Numbered from the stretch's first letter, positions 6,221-28,959 are shown. The stretch: 32,000 bases of DNA from Thermoplasmatales archaeon (GCA_030595715.1 JAUVCN010000009.1:12035-44034); one strand, 5' to 3'. Program-made: numbers and translations. The notes: generated from the sequence alone by a model not told the origin.

Positions 6221-6350
6221 TTCTTCCGAAAGAACGTCAGAAGGATCCGATCTCATTGAAGGTTCCAAAGGGCGCTATGCCTGAATATCCGATGAAGTGT
6301 TCGAATTCCATACTAATCTCGTTATATATCTTGTATCAGTTTCCGTTGTA

Positions 6351-9300
6351 ATGAGATATGGAAGAGGCTCCATTTTCATTTCGATCATGGTCTTGGGATT
6401 GATGATACAGATAATTCCGGATTCCAACGGAATGGAATGGGATGAGACCTACCAGAGATCCGATGCCAAACCATGGAAGATATGGTACCGTGATCCTGAG
6501 AATATACAATCCATGGAAATGGACCAAGAGAACAGAACTCTTTACATCGGTTGTGAGTATGGTTTGGTAATCAAGGACCTGGACACTGAAGAATTCAACA
6601 TTATTGACAGGTTCGATGGTGTGAATTCACTGGCAGATCAGCAGGTGATAGATATCGAACTGGACCTTGCCAACGAGCGAGTGTTCTTTGCCTTGGAGAA
6701 AGGCCCGGAGGTCTATGAACTGGATATAATATCGGAAACTATCTCAAAGATCCACAAGTTCGATGACGGTTCGAACCTTTTTAAATGGGGCGATTCCAGG
6801 GCTCTTGAATACGATCCGATAAGTGATGTTCTCTTTTTCGCCAGAGATTCCGGGCTTCTTGTCTTCAACATGCGAGAGAATCATTTCAGGTTCCTAGATT
6901 TCCTTCACTTCGGTGTTGAACTGTATAGCTATACCGTATCCGATAATGAGGTCGAGGTGGTGATGGCCGGTTACAATGGTTTGTGGAAGAATGGACCTGG
7001 TGATATGGATGATAATTCTTTCCAAATAAAGGATCTGGAACTTTGCCTTTCAAGGGATAGATTGTTCATTGCTACCAACAACGGGCTCTTTTCTTATGAT
7101 ATGACAAAAGGGATCATCGAACAGGATATTTCCACCCAGAAACTGGGAAGATTCCTGAAAGATATTCTTTTCATTCCTGATCTGGATCTTCTGTTCCTCG
7201 CGGGAGAAAAGGTCTGGTCATTCAATCCTAACACAAACAGTACGGGGGTAATCTATGAGGATTATCTGGATCGGGATCAGAAACATAAGGTTTTCCTCAA
7301 GCTTTTATGGAATGTTAGAGACCAATCCCTGATCATCAGCTCTGGTCTCGGTCCAGCTTTGATCTTCCTCGATTGGGATACCGGTGCTGTCACCTTTTCA
7401 AATACCGATATCATGATAGTTGAGAATGTCGAATTCCACCATTTGGGTTGGGACCTCTCAGCGGGGAATTATACTGAGATGGTGCTTGATGGATCTACCT
7501 TTGACCTGCTTTTATCAAGGGGTGACATCATTGCAGGCGGATACTGGTGGAATGTAACATATGATGTGGATGTCAGCGTCCCGGTAGAGAGATACTGGAA
7601 CAGGTCGAATTTCCTTGAGATCAATGGTTATGACCTGATCATCGATATCGATGTTAAGGGGAAGGGATCAAAGGAAACCCATGGACGTAGGGACTTTTGT
7701 GGCTCACTTTTTCAATTTGATCTGGATGGATGCAGTATCCGTTCAAGAACGATACTTGACTATTTTACCCACGATGACGAGATTTACAGGATCCACATGT
7801 CCGAGCCGAGAAATCACATTGCCTCCAAGGGTAATCGATTGTTCGCCAAATTAGATTCCAAAGGCCTCTGGGACCTCAACATCGAAGAGGGTACATTGAG
7901 CCAGGAGTATTTTCCCTATTTCAATGAGACATATGAGAAATATCGTTACAGGAATATCCGGAATATCTTTACAGTCGGTGATGATATTCATGTATCTCTT
8001 GCTGGAAACGGTACGATCCTATATGACATAGAAAATGGCACCCGTAAATTCGATGTTGACCTGCAAATAGGATACAGTAGCTTCCAGATCGGTCCAGTTT
8101 CCGGTCATATTTTCACAGGTGGAAACCGCACCGGTAATATCATCGAATACGACCCCATGACCGGAGAGTCAATTGACCATTACTTCAATATCAGCGATCC
8201 GAACACCGGACAACCCGGATACATTGAACATCTGGTATTCAATACAGATGAGACGATTGCAGTTATTGGTGGAATTCGAAATATTACTACAATGAATATG
8301 AAATACGGGGTCCTCGGAAACAAGAACTACCTTGAAGACATCGAAACATGGGACCCAAGATATCAATTCGACGAGTTTATTACGGAAATAATCTATCACG
8401 AAGGAACGGATACTTTCTACGGTTTTACGAACCATGGTGAGATCATAGATATACTGAGGTCAAAGAGACTTGGTTATCTCACAAACAGCACCGTAAGCGA
8501 TTATTGCCTTGGTCCGAATGGAAGCAAGATATTGGCGGTTACGGGAAAGACGATGATGGGTAGTATCGGATTCGATGCCGATGAACCGAATGGATTGATA
8601 TCCTACGATCCTTCAACAGGGGAGATCGAGGATTATAACTTTGATATTGGACTTCCCTGGGTTCACTGCCTGGGTTTAACCGTGAACGAAGAATCCGGAT
8701 GGATATGTATTATCGGCAAAACATACATCGCAGTGATAAGGGAGGAAGATCTGGTCCAGGTCGATAAAAAGAACGGGTCGGACGTGACGGAGGATGTTCC
8801 AGTAAATCATCCGGAGATCGAGGAGAATTCAGGGGCATTCACCGATGAACTGATCTTCGGAGCTGCCGGCCTGTGTATCATATCTTTATTGGGTGCGGCA
8901 ATCATTTTCTTCGAGCCTTTAAAGTTCAAAATTCTTTCAGCATTTGCATACCCTCTATTCACCAAGGTCAGAGGAAAAGATCTGCTGGGTAACAAGAAAA
9001 GAAGGAAGATAATTGGAGTGATAAGGGAGCACCCATACATCCATTTCAATGGTATCAGAAAGGAATTATCCCTTGGCCCCGGTGAGGCCGCATATCACCT
9101 CAGGGTCCTTGAAAGAGAAGAGATGATAGGATCTGAACCAAGAGGTGTAAGAAAGGTGTTCTATTTGATCGGAGGGAAGAAAAAAGGAAATGAATTCCTC
9201 CAAAGTAGGCTTCAGAGGATGATAGTGGATCTTATCTCTATGGAGCCAGGGATCTCTCAGAGGGAGCTGTCACGGAGATTGGATACTAACCCCTCCACCA

Positions 9301-9389
9301 TAAATTACAATGTCAGGTCCCTTGCAAGAAGAGATATCATTCGTATCGAAAGAAGCAGTTCCAGGTCCATGTGCTACAGAACGAACTAA
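6351..9389 (+). CDS. membrane-spanning protein: N-terminal TM, large extracytoplasmic propeller-like domain, second TM, two C-terminal winged-helix domains
   Basis: N-terminal hydrophobic segment SIFISIMVLGLMIQII. Recurrent motifs resemble two-component-regulator propeller repeats: GCEYGLVIKD, ARDSGLLVFN, ATNNGLFSYD, AGEKVWSFN. Second TM LIFGAAGLCIISLLGAAIIFF (about 8848-8912). Two wHTH-like segments follow: IREHPYIHFNGIRKELSLGPGEAAYHLRVLEREEMI and LISMEPGISQRELSRRLDTNPSTINYNVRSLARRDII. The start is uncertain (ATG 6351 or GTG 6297). Confidence 0.7.
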   Translation: MRYGRGSIFISIMVLGLMIQIIPDSNGMEWDETYQRSDAKPWKIWYRDPENIQSMEMDQENRTLYIGCEYGLVIKDLDTEEFNIIDRFDGVNSLADQQVIDIELDLANERVFFALEKGPEVYELDIISETISKIHKFDDGSNLFKWGDSRALEYDPISDVLFFARDSGLLVFNMRENHFRFLDFLHFGVELYSYTVSDNEVEVVMAGYNGLWKNGPGDMDDNSFQIKDLELCLSRDRLFIATNNGLFSYDMTKGIIEQDISTQKLGRFLKDILFIPDLDLLFLAGEKVWSFNPNTNSTGVIYEDYLDRDQKHKVFLKLLWNVRDQSLIISSGLGPALIFLDWDTGAVTFSNTDIMIVENVEFHHLGWDLSAGNYTEMVLDGSTFDLLLSRGDIIAGGYWWNVTYDVDVSVPVERYWNRSNFLEINGYDLIIDIDVKGKGSKETHGRRDFCGSLFQFDLDGCSIRSRTILDYFTHDDEIYRIHMSEPRNHIASKGNRLFAKLDSKGLWDLNIEEGTLSQEYFPYFNETYEKYRYRNIRNIFTVGDDIHVSLAGNGTILYDIENGTRKFDVDLQIGYSSFQIGPVSGHIFTGGNRTGNIIEYDPMTGESIDHYFNISDPNTGQPGYIEHLVFNTDETIAVIGGIRNITTMNMKYGVLGNKNYLEDIETWDPRYQFDEFITEIIYHEGTDTFYGFTNHGEIIDILRSKRLGYLTNSTVSDYCLGPNGSKILAVTGKTMMGSIGFDADEPNGLISYDPSTGEIEDYNFDIGLPWVHCLGLTVNEESGWICIIGKTYIAVIREEDLVQVDKKNGSDVTEDVPVNHPEIEENSGAFTDELIFGAAGLCIISLLGAAIIFFEPLKFKILSAFAYPLFTKVRGKDLLGNKKRRKIIGVIREHPYIHFNGIRKELSLGPGEAAYHLRVLEREEMIGSEPRGVRKVFYLIGGKKKGNEFLQSRLQRMIVDLISMEPGISQRELSRRLDTNPSTINYNVRSLARRDIIRIERSSSRSMCYRTN

Positions 9390-14890: not shown

Positions 14891-15502
14891 ATGAACGTCA
14901 ACGGATACATGAACGGATATACTGATTCCCTGATCAGATTACACAGCTGGAGGAACGAACTGAACATCATCAACAAGATAATGCTTGCACTGGGGTTCGC
15001 CCTTCTGACAGGCCTCCTGGCCCAGGTAAGGTTCGGCCTTCCTTTCTCACCTGTCCCCCTCACAGGTCAGACATTCGCGGTCCTTCTCGCTGGTGTCCTT
15101 CTTGGAAGATGGGGTGGTGTGAGCATGGGGATGTATGTTGGAATAGGTGCTGCGGGTGTTCCGTGGTTCACCGGATGGCAGGGAGGTCTTGCAACCTTCA
15201 CAGGAGCGACCGGTGGATATCTGGTCGGTTTCGTTCTCGCTGCATTGTTCGTCGGTTTCATGACAGAGAGATATGTCAGGTCCAGGAAGATGCATGCTCT
15301 CCTGCCAGTAATGCTCTTTGCCAATTTCTTCCTCATCTATATCCCGGGCCTGCTCGTCCTCCACTTCTGGTGGGGGGAGTTCGTAGGACCCATGACGATG
15401 ATGAAGCTCCTTGCGGTCGGTCTCATTCCTTTCCTGGCAGGCGACCTTCTGAAGATAGCAGCAGCTGCCGGGATCGCAAGAGCGATCCTCCCTGCAAGAT
15501 GA
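14891..15502 (+). CDS. bioY: biotin transporter S-component BioY
   Basis: Polytopic membrane protein with PLTGQTFAVLLAGVLLG and TGATGGYLVGF blocks characteristic of BioY. Confidence 0.85.
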   Translation: MNVNGYMNGYTDSLIRLHSWRNELNIINKIMLALGFALLTGLLAQVRFGLPFSPVPLTGQTFAVLLAGVLLGRWGGVSMGMYVGIGAAGVPWFTGWQGGLATFTGATGGYLVGFVLAALFVGFMTERYVRSRKMHALLPVMLFANFFLIYIPGLLVLHFWWGEFVGPMTMMKLLAVGLIPFLAGDLLKIAAAAGIARAILPAR

Positions 15503-15534
15503 TCAACGTGATGAACGAAGGCCTCTCTGGGGCC

Positions 15535-15566
15535 GGGCGCACTCTTCAAACCCCCACAGTGCGCCC
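15535..15566 (+). terminator. GC-rich hairpin between bioY and birA
   Basis: GGGCGCACT (15535-15543) pairs perfectly with AGTGCGCCC (15558-15566), with a 14-nt loop. It lies 33 nt after the bioY stop. It is followed by a TATA-like TTTAAAATAATATT about 25 nt before the birA ATG. Confidence 0.4.
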
Positions 15567-15601
15567 ATAAGTCTTTAAAATAATATTCACCATGAACGGA
15601 T

Positions 15602-16558
15602 ATGAAACAGAGGACCCTTGAACTCCTCAAACCGAACGAGTTCGTTTCGGGGGAGGCCATAGCTTCCGAGTTGGACATATCCAGGACCGCGGTATGGAAA
15701 CATATCAGATCACTGAAGCAGCTTGGATATGATATCGAGACGGTCAAGAACAGAGGTTACCGTCTGATATCGTCACCCGATCTTCTCCTTGCAGAAGAGG
15801 TCGGGCGCGACCTGGACACAAAGATCATCGGAAATGAGATCGAATACCACTCCAGGATAGGTTCCACCAACACAAGGGGAAAAGAACTTGCCAGAAAGAA
15901 GGTCCAAGAAGGGATGGTCATCGTTGCCGAGGAGCAGACCGAAGGAAGGGGACGAAAACAGAGGCAATGGTCCTCTCCGGAAGGAGGATTGTGGTTCTCT
16001 GTCATTCTCTATCCGGACCTGCCGCCGGACAAGGGGATGCTTGTGACGATGATGACCTCGATATCGGTGGCGAAGGGTATCGAGGAGACAACGGGGATCA
16101 CCCCTCTGATCAAATGGCCGAACGACCTTCTGCTTGATGGAAAGAAGATCTGCGGCATACTGACCGAGCTCGATGCCGAGCTGGACAGGATAGAAAGCCT
16201 GGTGGTCGGGATCGGGATCAATGTCAACAACAGGATCGATATCGAGTTGAAGGACATTGCAATGAACCTCGAAACGAACCTTGGAAAGCCGGTATCCCGG
16301 GTGGATCTGTTGAGGTCGATACTCCGGTCCATGGACTCATATTATGAGTTGCTGAAAAGAGGAGACCACGATAGGATCAGGGATAAATGGACGGAGCTAT
16401 CTCGAATGGTCGGGAGGAAGATATCGGTCGTTGGAGAGAGGGATCGATCCGAGGGGACGGTTCTGAGAATTGATGATAGTGGCTGCATCATCCTGGAAAC
16501 GAAAACAGGACAGAAACGTATCGTAAGCGGTGACATCCGTTATCTGGATCGAACATGA
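15602..16558 (+). CDS. birA: bifunctional biotin--[acetyl-CoA-carboxylase] ligase / biotin operon repressor BirA
   Basis: N-terminal HTH (SGEAIASELDISRTAVWKHIRSLKQLGYDI). Catalytic motif GRGRKQRQWSSPEGGLWFS. KWPNDLLLDGKKICGIL. The TATA-like box spacing suggests a leaderless mRNA. Confidence 0.9.
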   Translation: MKQRTLELLKPNEFVSGEAIASELDISRTAVWKHIRSLKQLGYDIETVKNRGYRLISSPDLLLAEEVGRDLDTKIIGNEIEYHSRIGSTNTRGKELARKKVQEGMVIVAEEQTEGRGRKQRQWSSPEGGLWFSVILYPDLPPDKGMLVTMMTSISVAKGIEETTGITPLIKWPNDLLLDGKKICGILTELDAELDRIESLVVGIGINVNNRIDIELKDIAMNLETNLGKPVSRVDLLRSILRSMDSYYELLKRGDHDRIRDKWTELSRMVGRKISVVGERDRSEGTVLRIDDSGCIILETKTGQKRIVSGDIRYLDRT

Positions 16559-16575: not shown

Positions 16576-16726
16576 TTTCATCCTTTTCAAAAGAAGGTCC
16601 TCTTCGCCTTTTCCATTTTGTACATTATCAGATAGAGATCGAAATATCTCTAAATGGGGAATATTCCCGGTAAAGAACAAATACCATTCATGTATGTAAG
16701 TGATTACTTACATGGGGGATGCCCGG

Positions 16727-17323
16727 ATGGAATATACTGATAATCAGAAAAGGATGCTCGGATCTGCTCTCGGTCTTTTCTCGACAAAAGGATTCAAGGC
16801 AACGACAACAAAGGAGATTGCCGAAAGGACCGGAATGAATGAACTGACGATCTTCAGGAACTTCGGGACAAAGGAGAGACTTCTGGAAGAGGTCATTGAT
16901 TTTGGGCTCGATACGGAAGGATTGAAAGGTTCACTGGACATGGAACTCACCGGAAATATCGAAGAGGACCTCTTTTCCATGATATCGAAGATGAGGTCCA
17001 TGATAAGGGAGAGGGAGAGCATCTATGCCCTGATGTTCAGGGAGATATCCACCAATGATATCGTTAAAAAGAAGCTCGGCCAGGTTCCGATCATAATGAA
17101 GGAGTTCATGCTCATGAGGTTATCAGAGATCCTGAATCACGAGGAAAGGGACGATGTCGATAGCGAAACCGCGGGTATATTCCTCGCTTCCTATTATCTA
17201 AGAAGTGAGATGATGAGGATCATGATGGGATCAGACCCGTTCCATGATGCGGATGAGACCAGATTGAAGGATGTGGTTAGGATCTTCCTCCATGGTTATC
17301 TGAAAAGGGGGGATGATAATTGA
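16727..17323 (+). CDS. TetR-family transcriptional regulator
   Basis: N-terminal HTH LGSALGLFSTKGFKATTTKEIAERTGMNELTIFRNFGTKERLL. The ATG at 16727 follows GGGGGA. The ORF-track GTG at 16700 is an alternative. The stop overlaps the next gene's start. Confidence 0.8.
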   Translation: MEYTDNQKRMLGSALGLFSTKGFKATTTKEIAERTGMNELTIFRNFGTKERLLEEVIDFGLDTEGLKGSLDMELTGNIEEDLFSMISKMRSMIRERESIYALMFREISTNDIVKKKLGQVPIIMKEFMLMRLSEILNHEERDDVDSETAGIFLASYYLRSEMMRIMMGSDPFHDADETRLKDVVRIFLHGYLKRGDDN

Positions 17324-18045
17324 ATGCCATCGAGATCCGGGGATTGAAGAAATATTATGGAAAAGTAAAAGCCGTGGATGGACTGGACCTGACCGTTCCA
17401 ACAGGTGTCGTTTTCGGATTGCTCGGTCCCAATGGGTCCGGAAAAACGACCCTGATCAAGGTCCTCTGTCATTTGCTGAAACCTGATTCAGGGGTCGCAG
17501 AGGTCCTTGGAATACCCGTAAAGGGGCGGTCCTATCTTCCACGGATCGGATACATGCCGCAGGAGATCGCCCTTTACGAGGATATGACGGTTCACGATAA
17601 CCTGAAGCTCTTTGCAGGAATTTATGGGCTTGACAGGGTGACGTTCAAGAGACGGGAAAAGGAGGTCCTGACAACCATCGATCTGCTGGAAAGAAAGGAT
17701 TTTCCATTGTCCGATCTCTCCGGAGGCCAGAAACACAGGATATCGCTGGCAGTTTCCATGATACATGAACCCGAGATCCTCTTCCTTGACGAACCCACCG
17801 TGGGTGTGGATCCCCTGCTCAGGGCCGTGTTCTGGAAGAACTTCCATGATCTGAAGAAGAAGGGTGTCACGATCATAATGTCCACCCATTACATGGATGA
17901 AGCAAGGAATTGTGATATCATTGGGATGATGAGGGCCGGGAAGCTGATCGATGAAGGATCCCCGGATGAAATACTGAAGAGGACCGGGAAGGATAACCTG
18001 GAGGATGCATTCCTCGATATCGTGAAGAGAGGTGCGTCATCATGA
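17320..18045 (+). CDS. ABC-2-type transporter ATP-binding protein
   Basis: Walker A GPNGSGKTT, signature LSGGQKHRI, Walker B LFLDEPTVGVD. The TTG start follows AAAGGGGGGA and overlaps the TetR stop. Confidence 0.85.
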   Translation: MNAIEIRGLKKYYGKVKAVDGLDLTVPTGVVFGLLGPNGSGKTTLIKVLCHLLKPDSGVAEVLGIPVKGRSYLPRIGYMPQEIALYEDMTVHDNLKLFAGIYGLDRVTFKRREKEVLTTIDLLERKDFPLSDLSGGQKHRISLAVSMIHEPEILFLDEPTVGVDPLLRAVFWKNFHDLKKKGVTIIMSTHYMDEARNCDIIGMMRAGKLIDEGSPDEILKRTGKDNLEDAFLDIVKRGASS

Positions 18046-19190
18046 ACATGAGACGGACCCTTATGATATCGAAAAAATTGTTCTGGTCCCTGAAACATGA
18101 CAGGAGGAGCGTTGCTCTCATCATAATTGCACCGATCATGTCCATGTTGATCTTCGGCCTTGCTTTCAGTGGTGATGTGGAAAATGTCAATGTCATCATC
18201 GTCAACTACGATCAAGGCGGCAATGTCCCCGGGATGAATACAACGATCTCACTTTCGGAACGGGTGATAGACAACATCGATGAAGATACGCTCGTTCTGA
18301 GCTATGGGGATGATATCGATGAAGCCGTGAAAAAGGTTGAGGACGGATCAGCGAATTCTGTTATCATATTCCCCGAGAACTTCACACGGAACCTGCTCTC
18401 ATTTGCTCAGGGGTCTCCTGTGGATGAAGCGGAGACGATCGAGATCAGATCGGACCAGAGCCAGGTCACTCTCTCCCAGGAGGTGATGGCAACGGTATTG
18501 GAAGCCCTGATAGAGACAACGGAATCATCCGGTTTCAGCAATCCCCTGAAGATCGACACATCCGATCCGATATATGGAGAGGGCGCGGAATTCCTGGATA
18601 TGTTCGTACCCGGTATCATGGGATTCATTGTGTTCCTTCTCACGACCATACTTACGCTCATATCCTTCGTGGGAGAGAAGACCGGGGGCACATTGCACAG
18701 ATTGCTGGCAAGCTCGGTAACGGAAGGGGAGATCGTTGTCGGATACGCCATCTCGTTCAGCATCATCGGAATGGCACAGGTTGGAATACTTATGGGAATT
18801 GCCATCCTGGTATTCGATATCATGGTGGTGGGAAACCCCCTTCTCGCTTTCCTAATAGCATCAATACTGGCGGTTGTCAGCGTATCTCTCGGGATACTCC
18901 TCTCCTCCCTGGCAAAAAGGGAATCCCAGGCTATCCAGTTCTATCCATTGATAGTCCTTCCCGGATTCCTTCTCTCGGGTGTTTTCTGGCCCATCGAAGC
19001 GATGCCTCTGTGGCTCAGGCCCGTTTCGTATTTCATTCCGGTGACCTATGCTGTAAATGGACTGAGAGCGGTTCTCCTCAGAGGATGGGGGGTCCTTGAT
19101 ATCTGGTTCGAGCTTATGATGCTGATAATATTTGCGATCGTCTTCCTCCTGCTTGCGATACTATCTCTTCGGAGGACATCCAAAGCCTGA
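18042..19190 (+). CDS. ABC-2-family transporter permease
   Basis: One N-terminal TM, a soluble loop of about 150 aa, then five or six C-terminal TM segments. ATGA overlap with the ATPase gene. This is the typical ABC-2 (NatB/YhaP-like) layout. Confidence 0.75.
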   Translation: MNMRRTLMISKKLFWSLKHDRRSVALIIIAPIMSMLIFGLAFSGDVENVNVIIVNYDQGGNVPGMNTTISLSERVIDNIDEDTLVLSYGDDIDEAVKKVEDGSANSVIIFPENFTRNLLSFAQGSPVDEAETIEIRSDQSQVTLSQEVMATVLEALIETTESSGFSNPLKIDTSDPIYGEGAEFLDMFVPGIMGFIVFLLTTILTLISFVGEKTGGTLHRLLASSVTEGEIVVGYAISFSIIGMAQVGILMGIAILVFDIMVVGNPLLAFLIASILAVVSVSLGILLSSLAKRESQAIQFYPLIVLPGFLLSGVFWPIEAMPLWLRPVSYFIPVTYAVNGLRAVLLRGWGVLDIWFELMMLIIFAIVFLLLAILSLRRTSKA

Positions 19191-23310: not shown

Positions 23311-24345
23311 TCATGTCTGCAGATCCAAGGTTACATTCTCCTCGACCAGTTTCTGGATCAATTCGATCTTATCCTTTTCAGTATTCAGGAGCAGGCTTTC
23401 CATATCGTCCACGTGCTTTGCGGTCGTATATGTGTCTCCCTGGACCAGAAGGAGGGGTATGTTCCTTTCATCCGCCCTGGAAATGATATTGGCCGGAGGG
23501 AGGAGGTTATTCGTCAGAACGATACCTGCGGTATCGGATTCCAATGCGCCCAGGATGATATCGCTCCTATCACCGGATGTGATAATGAGCTTTCCATCCC
23601 TCTTGAAGAGCGGGCTCTCTATTGCCCTGCTCCCTGTCATCGCTCCCACGAATATGTTGTTCACATAGTTCGAAAGGCCCCTGTTCCCTGCAATTATCTT
23701 GGCGAACAGGACATTTGAGATATGTTCCATGCTGAAATTGGTGAGGCTCTTCCTGTAGGGGATAATGCCAAGTATGGGGACCCCAAGTTCCCGGATGGCC
23801 TCCTCATTGACCATCATGAAATCTTCGGGATCGTTTACTTTGTTTATGAGTATCCCCTTGAATCTGACATCCTCTGCTTTGAGATGTCCGGTGATGAAAT
23901 GGGCCTCATCAACTATCTTGTCCTGCTCTCCACTTAGAATGAAGATCAATTCCGCGTCAAGTGTTCGTGCCACTGATATTGGATCGAGATGAAGTGAAGA
24001 GCCGTAGGTGAGGTCTCTCCCTCCTTCGATGAACAATATGTCACAATCCTTCTCGATCCTGTCCGCCATGTCATTGAGCTTCTTCGCGATGCTCTCCTTG
24101 TCGTACATGAACTTCAGCTTGGAATGGTCAAACCCAAGGCTCAGGTCCTCTGGACTTTCATTCAATTCGAACAGTTTGCTTATCAGGACGGAATCGTAGT
24201 CCAGGAGTCTCTTTTTCCGGTATAATATCCGCTCTCCAAAGGGTTTCATATATCCGATCCTGCTCTTTTCGCCCTTTCCGAATCCTACTATGAAGCTGGT
24301 CTTTCCAGCTCCTCTTTCCATCGATGCGATGACGATCCTTTTCAT
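23311..24345 (-). CDS. BioD/CobQ-like P-loop plus DRTGG domain protein (equivalent to the N-terminal module of class II phosphotransacetylase)
   Basis: N-terminal IVIASMERGAGKTSF P-loop. DILFIEGG. DRTGG-type block LIITSGDRSDIILGAL. No PTA_PTB catalytic domain. ATGA overlap with the upstream ACS gene. Confidence 0.75.
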   Translation of the reverse strand: MKRIVIASMERGAGKTSFIVGFGKGEKSRIGYMKPFGERILYRKKRLLDYDSVLISKLFELNESPEDLSLGFDHSKLKFMYDKESIAKKLNDMADRIEKDCDILFIEGGRDLTYGSSLHLDPISVARTLDAELIFILSGEQDKIVDEAHFITGHLKAEDVRFKGILINKVNDPEDFMMVNEEAIRELGVPILGIIPYRKSLTNFSMEHISNVLFAKIIAGNRGLSNYVNNIFVGAMTGSRAIESPLFKRDGKLIITSGDRSDIILGALESDTAGIVLTNNLLPPANIISRADERNIPLLLVQGDTYTTAKHVDDMESLLLNTEKDKIELIQKLVEENVTLDLQT

Positions 24346-26471
24346 TCCGAGACCTCCTTTTCCATGGCGATCATGATCCTTATATCCACTACTTTCACAC
24401 CCTTACCTCTCCCGAACACGAAGAGTGGGTTGATCTCGATGTCGGTAATCCTCTTCACTTTCCTTATAAGAGTGCCTACCTTGATCATTACTTCGATCAG
24501 TTCTTCGATATCCTTGCTTTCTTCACCCCTCACTCCCAGCAGTAGAGGGTAGGAACGAACGTCTTTGAGCAGGGAGTATACCTCTTCTCTGTCCATGGGT
24601 AGTGCTCTGAAGGAGACATCCTTCATCACCTCTACATAGATACCCCCGAGACCGAACATCAGTATAGGGCCGAAGGACCTGTCCCTCCTTGCTCCTATTA
24701 TGGTCTCGAGACCCTGTGGGATCATCTCCGCAACCTCTATCCCATCTATCTTTGCATGTGGATCGTAGTTCTTTGCGTTCCGAATGATGAGCTGATACGC
24801 GTCCATCACCTCTTCCTTGTTTTCCAGATCAAGCGCCACTCCTCCAGCATCGCTCTTGTGCAGTATGTCGCGAGATACTATTTTCATCACGATAGGGTAT
24901 CCCATATCTTCCGCTCCATTCACTGCCTCCTCTATACTCCTTGCGACGAAGCTCTTCGGAGTGGGGATGTCGGCTGCATCCAGCATCTCCTTAGCCTCCT
25001 GAGATAGAAGGAAGGCCCTCCCCTCGGAAAGAGCATTGTCCAAGATATTTTCGATCCTTTCCACGTCAATTTCGGATTCTGCAATTTCCATCTCTCTTCT
25101 GGCCTTGTTCTCACTGAATCGGTGAAGCACTCCGAAGCAGGAAACCATCTCATAAACCCCTTTGAATGCAGGGAGGCCATTTTCCTTTAGTTCGTTAACG
25201 CATTCCTCGACCTCCCTTCCCCCGACGAGGGAAAATGCTATTGTTTTCCCTCTGGACATGTACTCGTTGTGGATGAGCGTGATCATCTCCTTGTAAGGCT
25301 CCTTTTTAAAATCCGCTGTCTGGCAGTATAGTGCCATGACACTGCTTATCCGGTTGCTTTCCAGAGCAGCGATCAATGTTTTCTTGTAAACTTCGGCCGA
25401 AGACTGCCCTGTGATGTCGATAGGGTTCTTCGTTGACCCGAAGCTCGGTATCGCACTATGGAAGGTTTCCTTGAGGTATTCAGGCTCATCCATCAGTTCA
25501 ATGTTGTACTTCTCGCAGGCATCCGTTGCAAGGACACCTATTCCTCCGCCATTCGTCACAATAACACAGGAATTACTTTTTGGAAGTGGAGTGTCGGCAA
25601 GGAACTTGATCCAGTTGAATCCCTCATCCAGGCTCTCTGCTCTGAATACACCACACTGCTTCATCACAGAATCGAACACCTCATCTGACCCTGCAAGGGA
25701 GCCGGTATGCGATGCTGCGGCAAGTGCGCCTCTCTTGGACCTTCCGGATTTGATAACAACAACGGGTTTAATCCTGGAGATCTTCTTCAGGGACCCTAGG
25801 AGCGTCTCACCGTTAGTGATCCCTTCGATATATGCCAATATGACCTTTGTGCTATTATCATTTGCAAGATACTCCAACAGGTCGTTCTCGTCCATATCAG
25901 ATTTGTTGCCCAATGAGACTATGGTGGAAAGTCCGATTCCTTCAGTCGCGGTCTTACCGATCATGGCGATACCCAGAGCTCCACTCTGTGTGATGATGGC
26001 AACCTTCCCCTTCTTCACACCCTTGGGTCCGAATGTTGCATTAAGGTCCACTTTCGAGGAGTAAATGCCAAAGATGTTAGGTCCGAGTATCCTCATACGA
26101 TAGCTTTTGGCTGTTTCGACGATCTTCCTTTCGAGTTCCGATTCTCCGACCTCGGAGAACCCCGAGGTGATAATTGTCAGGAAGGATACTCCTTTTTCTC
26201 CACAGCGCCTTACCTCCTCCAGGACGAAGGAGGCCGGAATGGCAATGATTGCCATGTCCACTGAACCTTCAATGTCGGTTATCTGCTGATATGCCTTTAT
26301 TCCGAATATCTCCCCCCCTCTGGGGTTTATTGGGTAAAGTTCTCCTTTGTATCCTCCGGATGTGATATTTTCCATCAGCTTGTATCCTATCTTTCCCTCG
26401 ACATTGCTTGCTCCGATAACTGCCACGGAGCGTGGTTCAAAGAACCTCTTGATATCCGGACCATTTTCCAT
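24342..26471 (-). CDS. ADP-forming acetyl-CoA synthetase (fused alpha-beta acetate--CoA ligase)
   Basis: CoA-binding N-terminus FEPRSVAVIGASNVEGKIGYK, a succinyl-CoA-ligase-like middle region containing AASHTGSLAGS, and a C-terminal ATP-grasp. GGAGAG SD upstream. Confidence 0.85.
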   Translation of the reverse strand: MENGPDIKRFFEPRSVAVIGASNVEGKIGYKLMENITSGGYKGELYPINPRGGEIFGIKAYQQITDIEGSVDMAIIAIPASFVLEEVRRCGEKGVSFLTIITSGFSEVGESELERKIVETAKSYRMRILGPNIFGIYSSKVDLNATFGPKGVKKGKVAIITQSGALGIAMIGKTATEGIGLSTIVSLGNKSDMDENDLLEYLANDNSTKVILAYIEGITNGETLLGSLKKISRIKPVVVIKSGRSKRGALAAASHTGSLAGSDEVFDSVMKQCGVFRAESLDEGFNWIKFLADTPLPKSNSCVIVTNGGGIGVLATDACEKYNIELMDEPEYLKETFHSAIPSFGSTKNPIDITGQSSAEVYKKTLIAALESNRISSVMALYCQTADFKKEPYKEMITLIHNEYMSRGKTIAFSLVGGREVEECVNELKENGLPAFKGVYEMVSCFGVLHRFSENKARREMEIAESEIDVERIENILDNALSEGRAFLLSQEAKEMLDAADIPTPKSFVARSIEEAVNGAEDMGYPIVMKIVSRDILHKSDAGGVALDLENKEEVMDAYQLIIRNAKNYDPHAKIDGIEVAEMIPQGLETIIGARRDRSFGPILMFGLGGIYVEVMKDVSFRALPMDREEVYSLLKDVRSYPLLLGVRGEESKDIEELIEVMIKVGTLIRKVKRITDIEINPLFVFGRGKGVKVVDIRIMIAMEKEVSE

Positions 26472-26484
26472 TTATCATCTCTCC

Positions 26485-28359
26485 TTAAAAGGTCATGTTC
26501 AGCTCGTATACTCCTTCCGAAATCTTTGTCTGGATGTGGAAACCCATGCTCTTGAAAAGATGCATCATAGGTTGGTTGTTCGATAGGACCTCTGCAGTGA
26601 ATCCCAGAAGCCCCTGTTTCTTTGCCAGAGTGGTAAGATATTCCAGCATTACGGTTCCTATTCCATGGTTCTGGTACTCGTCAAGGACCACCAGTGCAAC
26701 CTCTGCAGAATGGCTTCTCTCGTCTATGCCGTACTGTCCTATGCCGTAGACGATCTCCTTTTCTTTATTCCCGTTGGTGACAAGTATGACCTTTTCTCTG
26801 GTGTTGTCGATGATGACGAATTCCTGCAGCCTCTCATGTGGGATGTGTTTCCTCACGGAGATGAACCTCTTGTAGATGCTGGAATCGGAAAGTGAATAGA
26901 AGAAATCCTTTACCATCGGTTCATCGCTGATCCTCACCGGCCTCATCACAACCTTCATTCCTCTGGATGTGGTTCTGTAGATCTCCAGGTCCTCTGGATA
27001 TTCTCCTCTCTTTCCCGGGATGAAAGCCTGGTCCTTGTAGATGAGTCCCTTGCTCTTTGCTTCCTTGATCAGCCATGGTCTGAACTTGGGATGCGCGATG
27101 GCGATGAGGTCCATTGCCCTCTCTCTTATGTTCTTTCCGTGTATGTATGCGATCCCGTATTCGGTCACTACATAGTGTATGTCGCCCCTGTTCAGTGTCA
27201 CTCCTGCTCCTTCTTCCAGGAATGGGACTATTCTGGAAATCGTATCACCCTTCGCAGTTGATTTGAGTGTGAGTATGGTCTTGCCTTTCTTGGCAAGCAC
27301 GGACCCTCTCATGAAATCCGCCTGCCCTCCTATCCCACTGTAGAATGTGCTCCCGATGGATTCAGCGGATGCCTGCCCGGTCAGATCCATCTGAAGTGCA
27401 CTGTTGATGGCCGTGATGTTGTCGATCTGTGCGATGGTGATCGGATTGTTGGTGTAATCTATGGGTCTGAACTCTATCATGGGATTATCGTGGACGAACT
27501 CGTAGGTTTCCTTGTTACCCATACAGAATGTTGCAACTGATTTCCCCCTGTTGATGGGTTTTTGGGTGTTATCTATGACCCCTTTCTTTATTAAATGGAC
27601 AATGCCGTCTCCGAAAAGCTCGGTATGGATGCCAAGATGCTTCTTCTGATCGAGGTGCGATAATATCGCGTTGGGCATGCTACCGTATCCTACCTGGATA
27701 GTGTCGCCGTCCTGCACTATCTTTGATACGTATTTTCCGATCCTCATGGCTATTCTGTCATCCACCAATGGTTCGTATTCAAGAAGGGGTTCGTCGTGAT
27801 GGATGATGTAGTCTATGTCCCTGATATGGAGGAATGTATCTCCATGGATCCTTGGCATGTTCGTGTTGACCTGTGCGATTACCAACGAAGCCTGTTCTAT
27901 TGCTGCCTTAATGATGTCAACGGAGATGCCCAGGCTCATGTATCCATTTTTATCAGGGGGTGATAGCTGTATGAGTGCAACATCAACCTCCACGAACCCC
28001 TTTCGGAGCAACTCGGGTATCTCCGATAGGAATATGGGTGTGTAATCTGCAATACCGTTGTTGACGGCTTCTCTGGTGTTCTCTCCAACAAAGAAGGAAT
28101 TGTGGCGGAAGTTTGTCTTGAACTTCTCATCGGTATATGGGGCGACACCAAGCGTCCATATGTGGAAGATCTCGGTATCGAAGAAGGCCTTGGGATGCTT
28201 GCTGACGTAATCGACCAATGATCTGACGAGATACTGGGGTTCAGAACAGGCAGTGCTGATGAAGATGCGGTCCCCGCGGTGTATGTTGGAAAATACCATG
28301 TCCTCCGATACGAATTTTTCGGGATATTGGGTTCGGAGCTTTCCCAGATCTTCCGCCAC
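26485..28359 (-). CDS. acetyl-CoA hydrolase/transferase-family domain fused to a C-terminal Pat-type GNAT acetyltransferase
   Basis: CoA-transferase blocks GDRIFISTACSEPQYL and SGIGGQADFMRGS. C-terminal GNAT with RPVRISDEPMVKDFFYSLSDSSIYKRF and AEVALVVLDEYQNHGIG (QxxGxG). The start is uncertain: GTG 28359 is preferred and ATG 28299 is an alternative. The ORF-track start at 28527 runs into AT-rich repeat/promoter DNA. Confidence 0.8.
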   Translation of the reverse strand: MAEDLGKLRTQYPEKFVSEDMVFSNIHRGDRIFISTACSEPQYLVRSLVDYVSKHPKAFFDTEIFHIWTLGVAPYTDEKFKTNFRHNSFFVGENTREAVNNGIADYTPIFLSEIPELLRKGFVEVDVALIQLSPPDKNGYMSLGISVDIIKAAIEQASLVIAQVNTNMPRIHGDTFLHIRDIDYIIHHDEPLLEYEPLVDDRIAMRIGKYVSKIVQDGDTIQVGYGSMPNAILSHLDQKKHLGIHTELFGDGIVHLIKKGVIDNTQKPINRGKSVATFCMGNKETYEFVHDNPMIEFRPIDYTNNPITIAQIDNITAINSALQMDLTGQASAESIGSTFYSGIGGQADFMRGSVLAKKGKTILTLKSTAKGDTISRIVPFLEEGAGVTLNRGDIHYVVTEYGIAYIHGKNIRERAMDLIAIAHPKFRPWLIKEAKSKGLIYKDQAFIPGKRGEYPEDLEIYRTTSRGMKVVMRPVRISDEPMVKDFFYSLSDSSIYKRFISVRKHIPHERLQEFVIIDNTREKVILVTNGNKEKEIVYGIGQYGIDERSHSAEVALVVLDEYQNHGIGTVMLEYLTTLAKKQGLLGFTAEVLSNNQPMMHLFKSMGFHIQTKISEGVYELNMTF

Positions 28360-28456
28360 TTTCTTTCTGTTCGTACCATCACATCCGCCTAGGGACAATG
28401 ATAAGTATATAACGGAACTATTAAAAACTTGCCATCTATATGTGTCATATGATTTT

Positions 28457-28511
28457 ATTATTACGATTATTTGTAACATATGGTAATTATTATAACGATT
28501 ATTTGTAACAT
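28457..28511. promoter_or_regulatory. perfect 17-nt direct repeat (ACGATTATTTGTAACAT) with 32-nt period, upstream of the acetyl-CoA operon
   Basis: Copies at 28463-28479 and 28495-28511. Both are preceded by ATTATTA-type sequence. They lie roughly 100-150 nt upstream of the preferred GTG start at 28359. Confidence 0.5.
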
Positions 28512-28688
28512 GATGTGAATCATTCATAATTGCTGTAAATATGCCGATAAAACGTAATGTCTCAAAATATGTCAGAATGGTGTTACATATTAAGGGTGAT
28601 AAGGGCGATTATCTATTGTAATGTCACACTGATGTGGAACATAGATTGATAATGGTCCCGATGTATGGGGTATGTGGAGGGAAACCAA

Positions 28689-28826
28689 ATGGAAACGACC
28701 CCTGTTATTGACACGAAATATGAGAGAGTTATAATCGATTCCTCGGGGATCGATGAGAAGAAGATGAAGAAGCTCTTCCAGCTGCTTTTCAGAGAAAGGA
28801 TCCCCATATCATACGAGCAGTATTGA
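28689..28826 (+). CDS. possible small protein (45 aa), unknown function
   Basis: ATG at 28689 with GGAGGG 8 nt upstream. Translation METTPVIDTKYERVIIDSSGIDEKKMKKLFQLLFRERIPISYEQY, stop TGA at 28824-28826. Too short to appear in the ORF track. It is antisense to the track's 75-aa TTG-start ORF, which has a low-complexity composition. Confidence 0.35.
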   Translation: METTPVIDTKYERVIIDSSGIDEKKMKKLFQLLFRERIPISYEQY

Positions 28827-28959
28827 TCCACATCCCGCAAGATCGATGCTTTGCTTCCTCATGGGGGGCCTTATTTCATTTCCTATCGATATTCTCAATT
28901 ATCATTTTACTGGATTCATGGTCAGTTTTTCGATAGTGGAATCATCGGGTCCTTCGAGG

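Follow-up and report, generated by a model that had tools for sequence, protein, structure and literature searches.

We identified a three-gene cluster on a 32,000-nucleotide stretch of DNA from a Thermoplasmatales archaeon (the window) with the appearance of an acetylation switch for acetate metabolism that is so far unstudied. Gene 1 encodes a CoA-transferase fused to a GNAT domain of the clade of the protein lysine acetyltransferase Pat, gene 2 encodes an ADP-forming acyl-CoA synthetase (ACD), and gene 3 encodes a protein with BioD-like and DRTGG domains. We regard it as an even call that these genes form one operon, conserved across phyla, in which a CoA-transferase/ACD acetate node is under acetylation control and the DRTGG protein is an ACD-linked regulator. 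Pat-type acetyltransferases are the main enzymatic on/off switch for acetate activation in bacteria. The architecture described here is strongly conserved and widespread, and it joins a Pat-clade GNAT to an intact CoA-transferase that is locked to an ACD or, elsewhere, to an Acs-family ligase. If our reading is correct, Pat-type control extends to the ADP-forming, ATP-conserving branch of acetate metabolism. That branch is expected to matter most in fermentative archaea and candidate phyla, and hosts of the cluster include Thermoplasmatota, Asgard archaea, anaerobic methanotrophic archaea (ANME), and Bipolaricaulota. The features of the cluster, in window coordinates, are as follows.

26485 to 28359, minus strand: gene 1, a 624-residue CoA-transferase-GNAT fusion with a GTG start (open reading frame, Pfam and NCBIfam matches, full-length homologs 64-88% identical)
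27052 to 28359, minus strand: CoA-transferase half of gene 1, residues 1-436, of the 4-hydroxybutyrate/butyryl-CoA:acetate CoA-transferase type (PDB matches)
27619 to 27621, minus strand: codon for Glu247, the predicted catalytic Glu of the CoA-transferase (alignment with residue 238 of 3gk7; HSE/HTE motif)
26956 to 27051, minus strand: inter-domain linker of gene 1, residues 437-468 (conservation in the homolog alignment)
26485 to 26955, minus strand: Pat-clade GNAT of gene 1, residues 469-624, with the stop codon (PDB and NCBIfam matches, PatZ alignment)
26701 to 26703, minus strand: codon for Glu553, the predicted catalytic Glu of the GNAT (gap-free alignment with PatZ E809)
24342 to 26471, minus strand: gene 2, a 709-residue fused alpha-beta ACD (Pfam and PDB matches)
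25707 to 25709, minus strand: codon for His255 (SHTGSLAG), the predicted ACD phosphohistidine (aligned with SHTGS/SHTGA of 4xyl and 8wzu)
23311 to 24345, minus strand: gene 3, a 344-residue BioD-like (AAA_26) and DRTGG protein (Pfam and NCBIfam matches)

Conservation of the fusion and its gene cluster

The fusion of a CoA-transferase to a GNAT recurs across archaea and bacteria. Each of the best 120 homologs, out of more than 8000 proteins, carried the CoA-transferase and GNAT Pfam domains in one protein of 606-674 residues that was 69-88% identical to the window protein, and the closest (82-88%) came from Thermoplasmatota metagenome-assembled genomes. Together with the flanking genes, these closest homologs place the window in an archaeon of the Thermoplasmatota. 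Because all 120 homologs are fused, we rejected the possibility, raised in a first-pass annotation of the window, that the fusion is a frameshift or assembly artefact of two separate genes. Hosts named among these 120 homologs are Thermoplasmatota, Bipolaricaulota, Promethearchaeota (Asgard), Woesearchaeota, Methanophagales, Methanoperedenaceae, and Poribacteria. A pattern scan of species-representative genomes returned at least 557 relatives of the fusion, and we sampled the neighborhoods of 80. All 80 loci encoded an essentially full-length fusion (three were cut by contig ends) with 64-82% identity to the window protein. Host groups represented among them include Thermoplasmatota, Theionarchaea, Woesearchaeota, Bipolaricaulota, Spirochaetota, Planctomycetota, Nitrospirota, and Thermotogae. 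Only one retrieved record, L038 from Lyngbya sp. CCY1209, did not derive from a metagenome-assembled genome.

To assess co-conservation, we searched the 80 loci with the three window proteins by tblastn. We counted as informative those loci that extend 3.4 kb or more downstream of the fusion (n = 63). The order fusion-ACD-DRTGG on one strand was found in 43 of these, with median spacers of ~20 nt; locus L073, whose genes overlap by a single base, was included manually. A locus from Nitrospirota (L056, 4012-9860) brings the total to 44 of 63, spread over many phyla. A lack of co-conservation, which the first-pass annotation would have taken as a refutation, was thus not seen. At L056, the fusion is divergent from an ACD-DRTGG pair whose members are only 34% and 29% identical to those of the window. 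Homologs of the L056 DRTGG protein led us to three more loci with the same divergent arrangement (L081, 833-7062; L082, 1018-7056; L084, 371-5745). The fusion remains ~67% identical to the window protein in these Nitrospirota-type clusters. Since the association outlasts both the divergence of the partners and the rearrangement of the genes, it points to a functional link and not simply to joint transfer.

The DRTGG gene was present in all 44 clusters and in none of the 19 informative loci without an ACD gene beside the fusion. Because it was never found without the ACD, we favor the ACD over the fusion as the partner of the DRTGG protein. Some clusters show variations on the common layout. 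Two tandem copies of the BioD-like/DRTGG gene follow the ACD gene in three spirochaete loci (L011, 11585-13993; L017, 12206-14586; L024, 4749-7128). An open reading frame (ORF) of 121-125 codons with no Pfam match lies between the fusion and the ACD-DRTGG pair in L081 and L082. A Dehalococcoidales locus (L059, 627-5093) carries two fusion paralogs in tandem, which share 66% and 61% identity with the window protein, and lacks both the ACD and the DRTGG gene.

Clustering the ORFs of all 80 loci revealed two further recurrent neighbors of note, an AMP-forming Acs-family ligase and an acetate uptake transporter, and no conserved biosynthetic neighbor. The ligase was encoded within 8 kb of the fusion at 8 of the 19 ACD-less loci, compared with 0 of the 44 clusters (Fisher p = 2e-5). 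Ligase representatives scored above curated cut-offs as acetate-CoA ligase (AcsA, at L067 and L057) and acetoacetate-CoA ligase (at L079), and the transporter gene scored above its own cut-off. AMP-forming Acs is the classic Pat substrate, and acetoacetyl-CoA synthetase is a substrate of PatA from Streptomyces lividans. The complementary distribution of ACD and Acs-family neighbors indicates that the fusion adjoins the enzyme, whatever its type, responsible for the ATP-dependent interconversion of acetate or short acids with their CoA esters.

The genes of the window copy are closely coupled. The stop codon of gene 1 and the start codon of gene 2 are separated by a 13-nt gap (TAA-ggagagatgataa-ATG) with GGAG inside it, and genes 2 and 3 share an ATGA overlap preceded by AAAGGAGG. 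The first-pass annotation had described the three minus-strand genes as coupled in this way, and we read both junctions as it reported them. The longest ORF for gene 1 spans 26485-28527. We chose the GTG at 28359 as the best start (624 residues) because homologs of 618-636 residues align from there; no in-frame ATG occurs between this GTG and the conserved YPEKF motif.

Sequence features of the three proteins

We compared the GNAT half of gene 1 to characterized acetyltransferases. When the domain was searched alone against solved structures, the best nine matches were all protein lysine acetyltransferases: PatZ from Escherichia coli (9it0, 9isq), PatA from S. lividans (4nxy, 4u5y), Pat from Mycobacterium tuberculosis (4ava), entries named 'Acetyltransferase Pat' (4orf, 4oll, 4onu), and 3f8k. 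PatZ matched with an E-value of 2.4e-14 and Pat-type enzymes with 2e-14 to 6e-13, compared with E > 1e-4 for RimI and small-molecule GNATs. The best NCBIfam GNAT model was NF058543, 'acetyltransferase Pat' (1.9e-20). A gap-free alignment with PatZ pairs R754 with R498, E809 with E553, and G822-L-G824 with G566-I-G568. These PatZ residues are of experimentally shown importance (PMC12184503), and their gene 1 counterparts are all invariant in an alignment of 20 fusion sequences from distant phyla (A1). A1 likewise shows no variation at Tyr496, Arg498, or Phe499, which are residues specific to the gating region of Pat. The motifs RPVRISDEP, YKRF, AEVALVV, and YQNHGIG are all present, and the structural and NCBIfam matches bear out the resemblance to Pat noted in the first-pass annotation. 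The concern that the domain might instead cluster with small-molecule N-acetyltransferases was not supported, as Pat-type relatives score far higher.

A GNAT search of representatives clustered at 50% identity gave a similar picture. CoA-transferase-GNAT proteins made up 57 of the 150 best representatives, with GNAT identities down to 34%, which indicates that the architecture itself is deep. The nearest relatives beyond the fusions include proteins with an ACD-like domain before or after the GNAT, the arrangements of Pat types I and II. Short relatives (260 residues or fewer, n = 84) do not count as evidence of a stand-alone family, because at least 3 of 10 inspected were 5'-truncated fragments of fusions. 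Two fusion variants, P0295 (960 residues) and P0320 (967 residues), are extended N-terminally by ~300 residues that include a ferredoxin-like 4Fe-4S dicluster domain, a hint that they form a subtype linked to redox state.

Known Pat enzymes provide a framework for interpreting the fusion. In PatZ, acetyl-CoA bound to the regulatory domain activates the GNAT by an allosteric route and contributes to forming the substrate pocket (PMC12184503). The acetyltransferase scheme restated in 2025 recognizes types I-V, whose regulatory domains are ACD-like, cAMP-, ACT-, or NADP-binding only, and includes no type linked to a CoA-transferase (PMC12184503). Like PatZ/YfiQ, Salmonella enterica Pat, and S. 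lividans PatA, the fusion combines a GNAT of the same clade with a large CoA-ester-binding domain and is tied genomically to acetate-activating enzymes. The GNAT partner in type I and II Pat is an ACD-like domain without the catalytic His, whereas here it is a class I CoA-transferase with an intact Glu, and the ACD is a separate gene. The fusion thus has the sequence hallmarks of a Pat-clade GNAT but not the NDP-forming acyl-CoA-synthetase-like partner of the type I/II architecture. Together with its conserved partners, the fusion family resembles a variant form of Pat-type regulator.

The remainder of gene 1 belongs to the acetyl-CoA hydrolase/transferase family. Pfam searches matched AcetylCoA_hydro (1.7e-55), AcetylCoA_hyd_C (1e-62), and the GNAT domain Acetyltransf_1 (1.1e-10). 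Residues 2-434 cover both halves of the hydrolase/transferase family, with 188.6 and 211.1 bits against gathering thresholds of 24 and 23.7. The GGQADFMRGS block is present, and the first-pass description of gene 1 as a member of this family fused to a GNAT is upheld. The best structural matches of this half were to CoA-transferases of the 4-hydroxybutyrate type: 3eh7 (1e-121), 9vag (3e-119), and 3gk7 (7.5e-111). Glu247 aligns with residue 238 of 3gk7, which we take to be the catalytic Glu of AbfT, and GGQADF aligns with GGQVDF of 3gk7; both are invariant in A1. Gene 1 therefore resembles the AbfT/Cat2 family in its fold, in its two Pfam domains, and in having the catalytic Glu and a GGQxDF motif. 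It differs in its C-terminal GNAT and in its score against TIGR03948, the butyryl-CoA:acetate CoA-transferase equivalog (288 bits, below the cut-off of 674.8).

Conservation extends along the full length of the fusion. Mean identity between the window protein and 19 homologs from distant phyla was 73% for the CoA-transferase half, 74% for the 32-residue linker, and 65% for the GNAT. Conservation of the linker is thus unusually high, on a par with that of the catalytic domains, and its residues D443, Q444, G449, and G452-E-Y-P455 are invariant in A1. These values indicate that the CoA-transferase, the linker, and the GNAT are all under strong constraint.

Gene 2 encodes a complete ACD. Pfam identified CoA_binding_2, Succ_CoA_lig, Ligase_CoA_2, and ATP-grasp_5, and the protein retains all ACD subdomains, the phosphohistidine His255, and the HKSD motif in its ATP-grasp part. 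It is thus an intact ADP-forming synthetase encoded apart from the GNAT, as had been proposed. The best structural match was 8wzu, the 4-hydroxybutyrate-CoA ligase of Nitrosopumilus maritimus (1.3e-152), followed by 4xyl, the alpha subunit of Korarchaeum ACD1 (5e-116). The match to the PatZ regulatory domain reached 283 bits, compared with 513 for the ACD match. The ACD-like domain of PatZ has Leu (L245) at the phosphohistidine position and has lost the catalytic His (PMC12184503). Like the archaeal ACDs from Ca. Korarchaeum (ACD1) and N. maritimus (Nmar_0206), gene 2 has five subdomains, the SHTGS motif, and the second His motif HKSD. Unlike them, it is a fused alpha-beta chain, scores below equivalog cut-offs, and is always followed by a BioD-like/DRTGG gene in the clusters. 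Its top-scoring NCBIfam model was 4-hydroxybutyrate-CoA ligase (607 against a cut-off of 1300), and it also fell short of the acetate-specific models TIGR02717 (515.7 against 567.15) and NF045494 (520.8 against 1200).

Gene 3 corresponds to the regulatory portion of class II phosphotransacetylase (Pta). It matches AAA_26 (2.2e-21) and DRTGG (9.5e-25), and its alignment with the class II Pta model NF004167 (708 positions) is confined to positions 3-365. The protein is only 344 residues long, and neither Pfam nor NCBIfam detected a PTA_PTB domain in it. Our searches agree with its original description as the P-loop and DRTGG N-module of class II Pta without the catalytic domain. It shares this N-terminal module with class II Pta but lacks PTA_PTB and is encoded beside an ACD rather than fused to Pta. 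The only PDB match was the DRTGG protein AF_1212 (2ioj, 4.7e-11). AF1211 is a characterized ACD of Archaeoglobus fulgidus, and the AF1211/AF_1212 pair could be an independent case of ACD and DRTGG genes as neighbors. Ser8, Gly14, and Thr16 of gene 3 are invariant in alignment A2. The Walker-A residue K15 (24301-24303, in GAGKT) is Arg in most Nitrospirota-type members of A2 (SGRTF), and the P-loop may serve in ligand binding rather than nucleotide hydrolysis.

The gene 3 family is large, and its members are named 'BioD-like phosphotransacetylase family protein', 'DRTGG domain-containing protein', or 'AAA family ATPase' in the source databases. One PTA-less AAA_26 and DRTGG protein, DVU3031 from Desulfovibrio vulgaris, is encoded beside pta-ack and has no assigned function (PMC4481167). 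Our analysis gives this orphan family (COG0857-type) a concrete, testable role as an ACD partner.

Proposed function and competing explanations

The sequence assignments above suggest a model for the cluster. The CoA-transferase half of gene 1 (residues 1-436), predicted to be an active class I enzyme, would swap CoA between acetyl-CoA/acetate and other short-chain acids. The ACD, also predicted to be active, would use acyl-CoA, ADP, and Pi to generate ATP, or catalyze the reverse reaction. Together, the two could form a cycle in which various acyl-CoAs are funneled to the substrate of the ACD to yield ATP, with acetate as a catalytic carrier, much as in the acetate:succinate CoA-transferase/succinyl-CoA synthetase cycle. 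Clade membership and context suggest that the C-terminal GNAT would act as a Pat-type protein lysine acetyltransferase. As the regulatory domain does in PatZ, the CoA-transferase domain would control the GNAT through its own binding or turnover of acyl-CoA. The target of acetylation would be an enzyme of the same node, the candidates being the neighboring ACD, the Acs-family ligase in genomes where one replaces the ACD, and the CoA-transferase domain to which the GNAT is fused. The strict co-occurrence of gene 3 with the ACD is consistent with a role as a non-catalytic, metabolite-sensing partner, which would do in trans what the regulatory module of class II Pta does in cis. We infer that acyl-CoA/acetate interconversion is coupled to protein acetylation, a reading that the genomic context strengthens.

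A system from Thermus thermophilus provides a close precedent for parts of this model. The CoA-transferase TtCoAT (TT_C1083) is the major acetylated protein detected there that depends on a lysine acetyltransferase (KAT), and it is acetylated by the GNAT KAT TT_C1711 (bioRxiv 10.1101/2025.10.31.685773). Acetylation at the N-terminal Lys5/Lys6 leaves the catalytic activity of TtCoAT unchanged and relieves its inhibition by ADLP, a non-catalytic, NAD+-sensing pseudoenzyme that resembles alanine dehydrogenase (bioRxiv 10.1101/2025.10.31.685773). TtCoAT belongs to the same CoA-transferase family as gene 1 and is coupled to a GNAT KAT and a metabolite-sensing partner, as we propose for the fusion. 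The Thermus system differs in that it consists of three separate proteins, its sensor is alanine-dehydrogenase-like and not BioD-like/DRTGG, and the study describes no ACD in it. This system is a precedent for a gated GNAT that acetylates an enzyme of the node and for the DRTGG protein as a sensor, and it also supports the main rival, in which the GNAT would acetylate the transferase domain of the fusion.

In that rival, the CoA-transferase domain of the same chain or of the other dimer subunit would be the physiological substrate of the GNAT. Its acetylation would tune the interaction with a sensor partner, the DRTGG protein, and the ACD and Acs would not be the targets. An enzyme dedicated to one substrate in this way would gain efficiency from being fused to it. 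Lys15 of gene 1 is invariant in A1 and aligns with Lys6 of 9vag, which is probably TtCoAT, judged from its N-terminal sequence and multi-chain entries. We downgraded Lys15 as a candidate acetylation site because the non-fused homologs 3eh7 and 3gk7 have Arg at this position. The DRTGG gene also tracks the ACD instead of the fusion (none of the 19 ACD-less loci has it), and the activity of TtCoAT itself did not respond to acetylation. We consider self-regulation of this kind unlikely.

The GNAT might instead use the acyl-CoA product of the CoA-transferase to N-acylate an amino acid, a polyamine, or a sugar amine in a biosynthetic or detoxifying reaction. Most GNATs act on small molecules, fusion of consecutive enzymes is a common form of channeling, and the domain has weak NCBIfam matches to RimI, ArsN1, PseH, and AAC(6') (E 1e-7 to 1e-2). 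We think a small-molecule enzyme very unlikely, given that the nine top structures and the top NCBIfam model are of the Pat clade with small-molecule GNATs far below, that the gating residues of Pat are invariant, and that the sole recurring neighbors are acetate- or acyl-CoA-activating enzymes. The genes might also share nothing beyond location on a mobile acetate-metabolism cassette, with the GNAT and DRTGG proteins functionally unrelated to the ACD and the GNAT perhaps a non-catalytic acyl-CoA-binding appendage. The ~70% identity of the fusion between archaea and bacteria suggests that horizontal transfer has been extensive, and most loci keep a rigid gene order. We find this explanation distinctly improbable, because the Nitrospirota-type loci retain the association despite diverged partners and a rearranged order, which suggests selection on the combination. 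The catalytic Glu and acetyl-CoA P-loop of the GNAT are also invariant, and the division between ACD and Acs-family neighborhoods is non-random.

Several observations weigh against an acetylation-controlled CoA-transferase/ACD node. Both the CoA-transferase and the ACD score below every NCBIfam equivalog cut-off, so these models assign a substrate to neither enzyme. We know of no ADP-forming synthetase that is a Pat substrate. Neither an ACD nor a DRTGG gene sits beside the fusion at 19 of the 63 informative loci (~30%), and at 11 of these 19 the search within 8 kb gave no Acs-family ligase either, which shows that the partner varies. The Arg that replaces Lys15 of gene 1 in non-fused homologs means that conservation of this residue need not reflect acetylation, and the Arg in place of the Walker-A Lys in most Nitrospirota-type members makes nucleotide hydrolysis by the DRTGG protein doubtful. 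An AlphaFold2 model of the fusion, built from the shallow and over-similar alignment A1, reached a mean predicted local distance difference test (pLDDT) score of 57.5 and a predicted template modeling (pTM) score of 0.49, too poor to judge domain packing. Our literature search found no study of a CoA-transferase-GNAT fusion, of a link between DRTGG proteins and ACDs, or of the three-gene cluster, and a paper on acetogenesis in ANME makes no mention of the cluster.

The window copy is an ordinary member of a large, annotated, uncharacterized family. Annotation pipelines name its members 'bifunctional acetyl-CoA hydrolase/transferase family protein/GNAT family N-acetyltransferase', 'GNAT family N-acetyltransferase', or 'acyl-CoA hydrolase/RimJ/RimL...'. 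Together with the literature search, these names match the earlier expectation that databases list the architecture under generic bifunctional labels and that no member is characterized.

We also considered a bolder version of the acetylation model, in which the fusion represents a sixth and so far unrecognized class of prokaryotic lysine acyltransferase. A live CoA-transferase would sense the ratio of acyl-CoA to acid and make the acyl donor in situ, so that different acids would lead to acetyl-, propionyl-, or butyryl-lysine on the ACD or Acs, in complex with the Pta-N-like sensor. We regard this version as distinctly improbable. If true, it would mean that acylation-based control of substrate-level phosphorylation is common to many uncultured anaerobes, including Asgard archaea.

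Upstream region and flanking genes

The sequence upstream of gene 1 contains candidate regulatory elements.

28360 to 28959, minus strand: upstream intergenic region, AT-rich, 600 nt (read from the sequence; promoter and operator roles are putative)

A TATATA element lies ~45 nt 5' of the gene 1 start. Farther upstream, a 25-nt direct repeat (28455-28479 and 28487-28511) has copies that are 96% identical at a spacing of 32 nt and lies 96-152 nt upstream of the fusion GTG. Within the window, the repeat core ACGATTATTTGTAAC occurs only in this repeat at 28455-28511, and two hits were found in 0 of 100 shuffles. The core was absent from all 85 fetched loci, and the repeat may be an operator for a local regulator.

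The cluster is bounded on both sides by unrelated genes. An SPFH/flotillin gene lies on the 5' side across the 600-nt spacer, and msrA is convergent with the cluster on the 3' side. The upstream spacer and the convergent downstream gene mark the three genes as a discrete unit. The flanking genes in the window (MsrA, an eIF-2B-like protein, an ATP-cone protein, and the SPFH/flotillin protein) are unrelated to the cluster, and no deacetylase is present among the annotated genes of the window. At 6297-9389 on the plus strand, the window encodes a 1030-residue protein whose Pfam match (HTH_HVO_0163_N and a winged helix) is confined to the C-terminal ~130 residues, leaving the N-terminal 900 residues unmatched. 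A BioY biotin transporter gene adjoins a gene for a BirA-like biotin ligase/repressor and is followed by a TetR regulator gene and an ABC-2 exporter pair (14891-16558 and 16700-19190, plus strand). These genes look like ordinary housekeeping context, unrelated to the operon.

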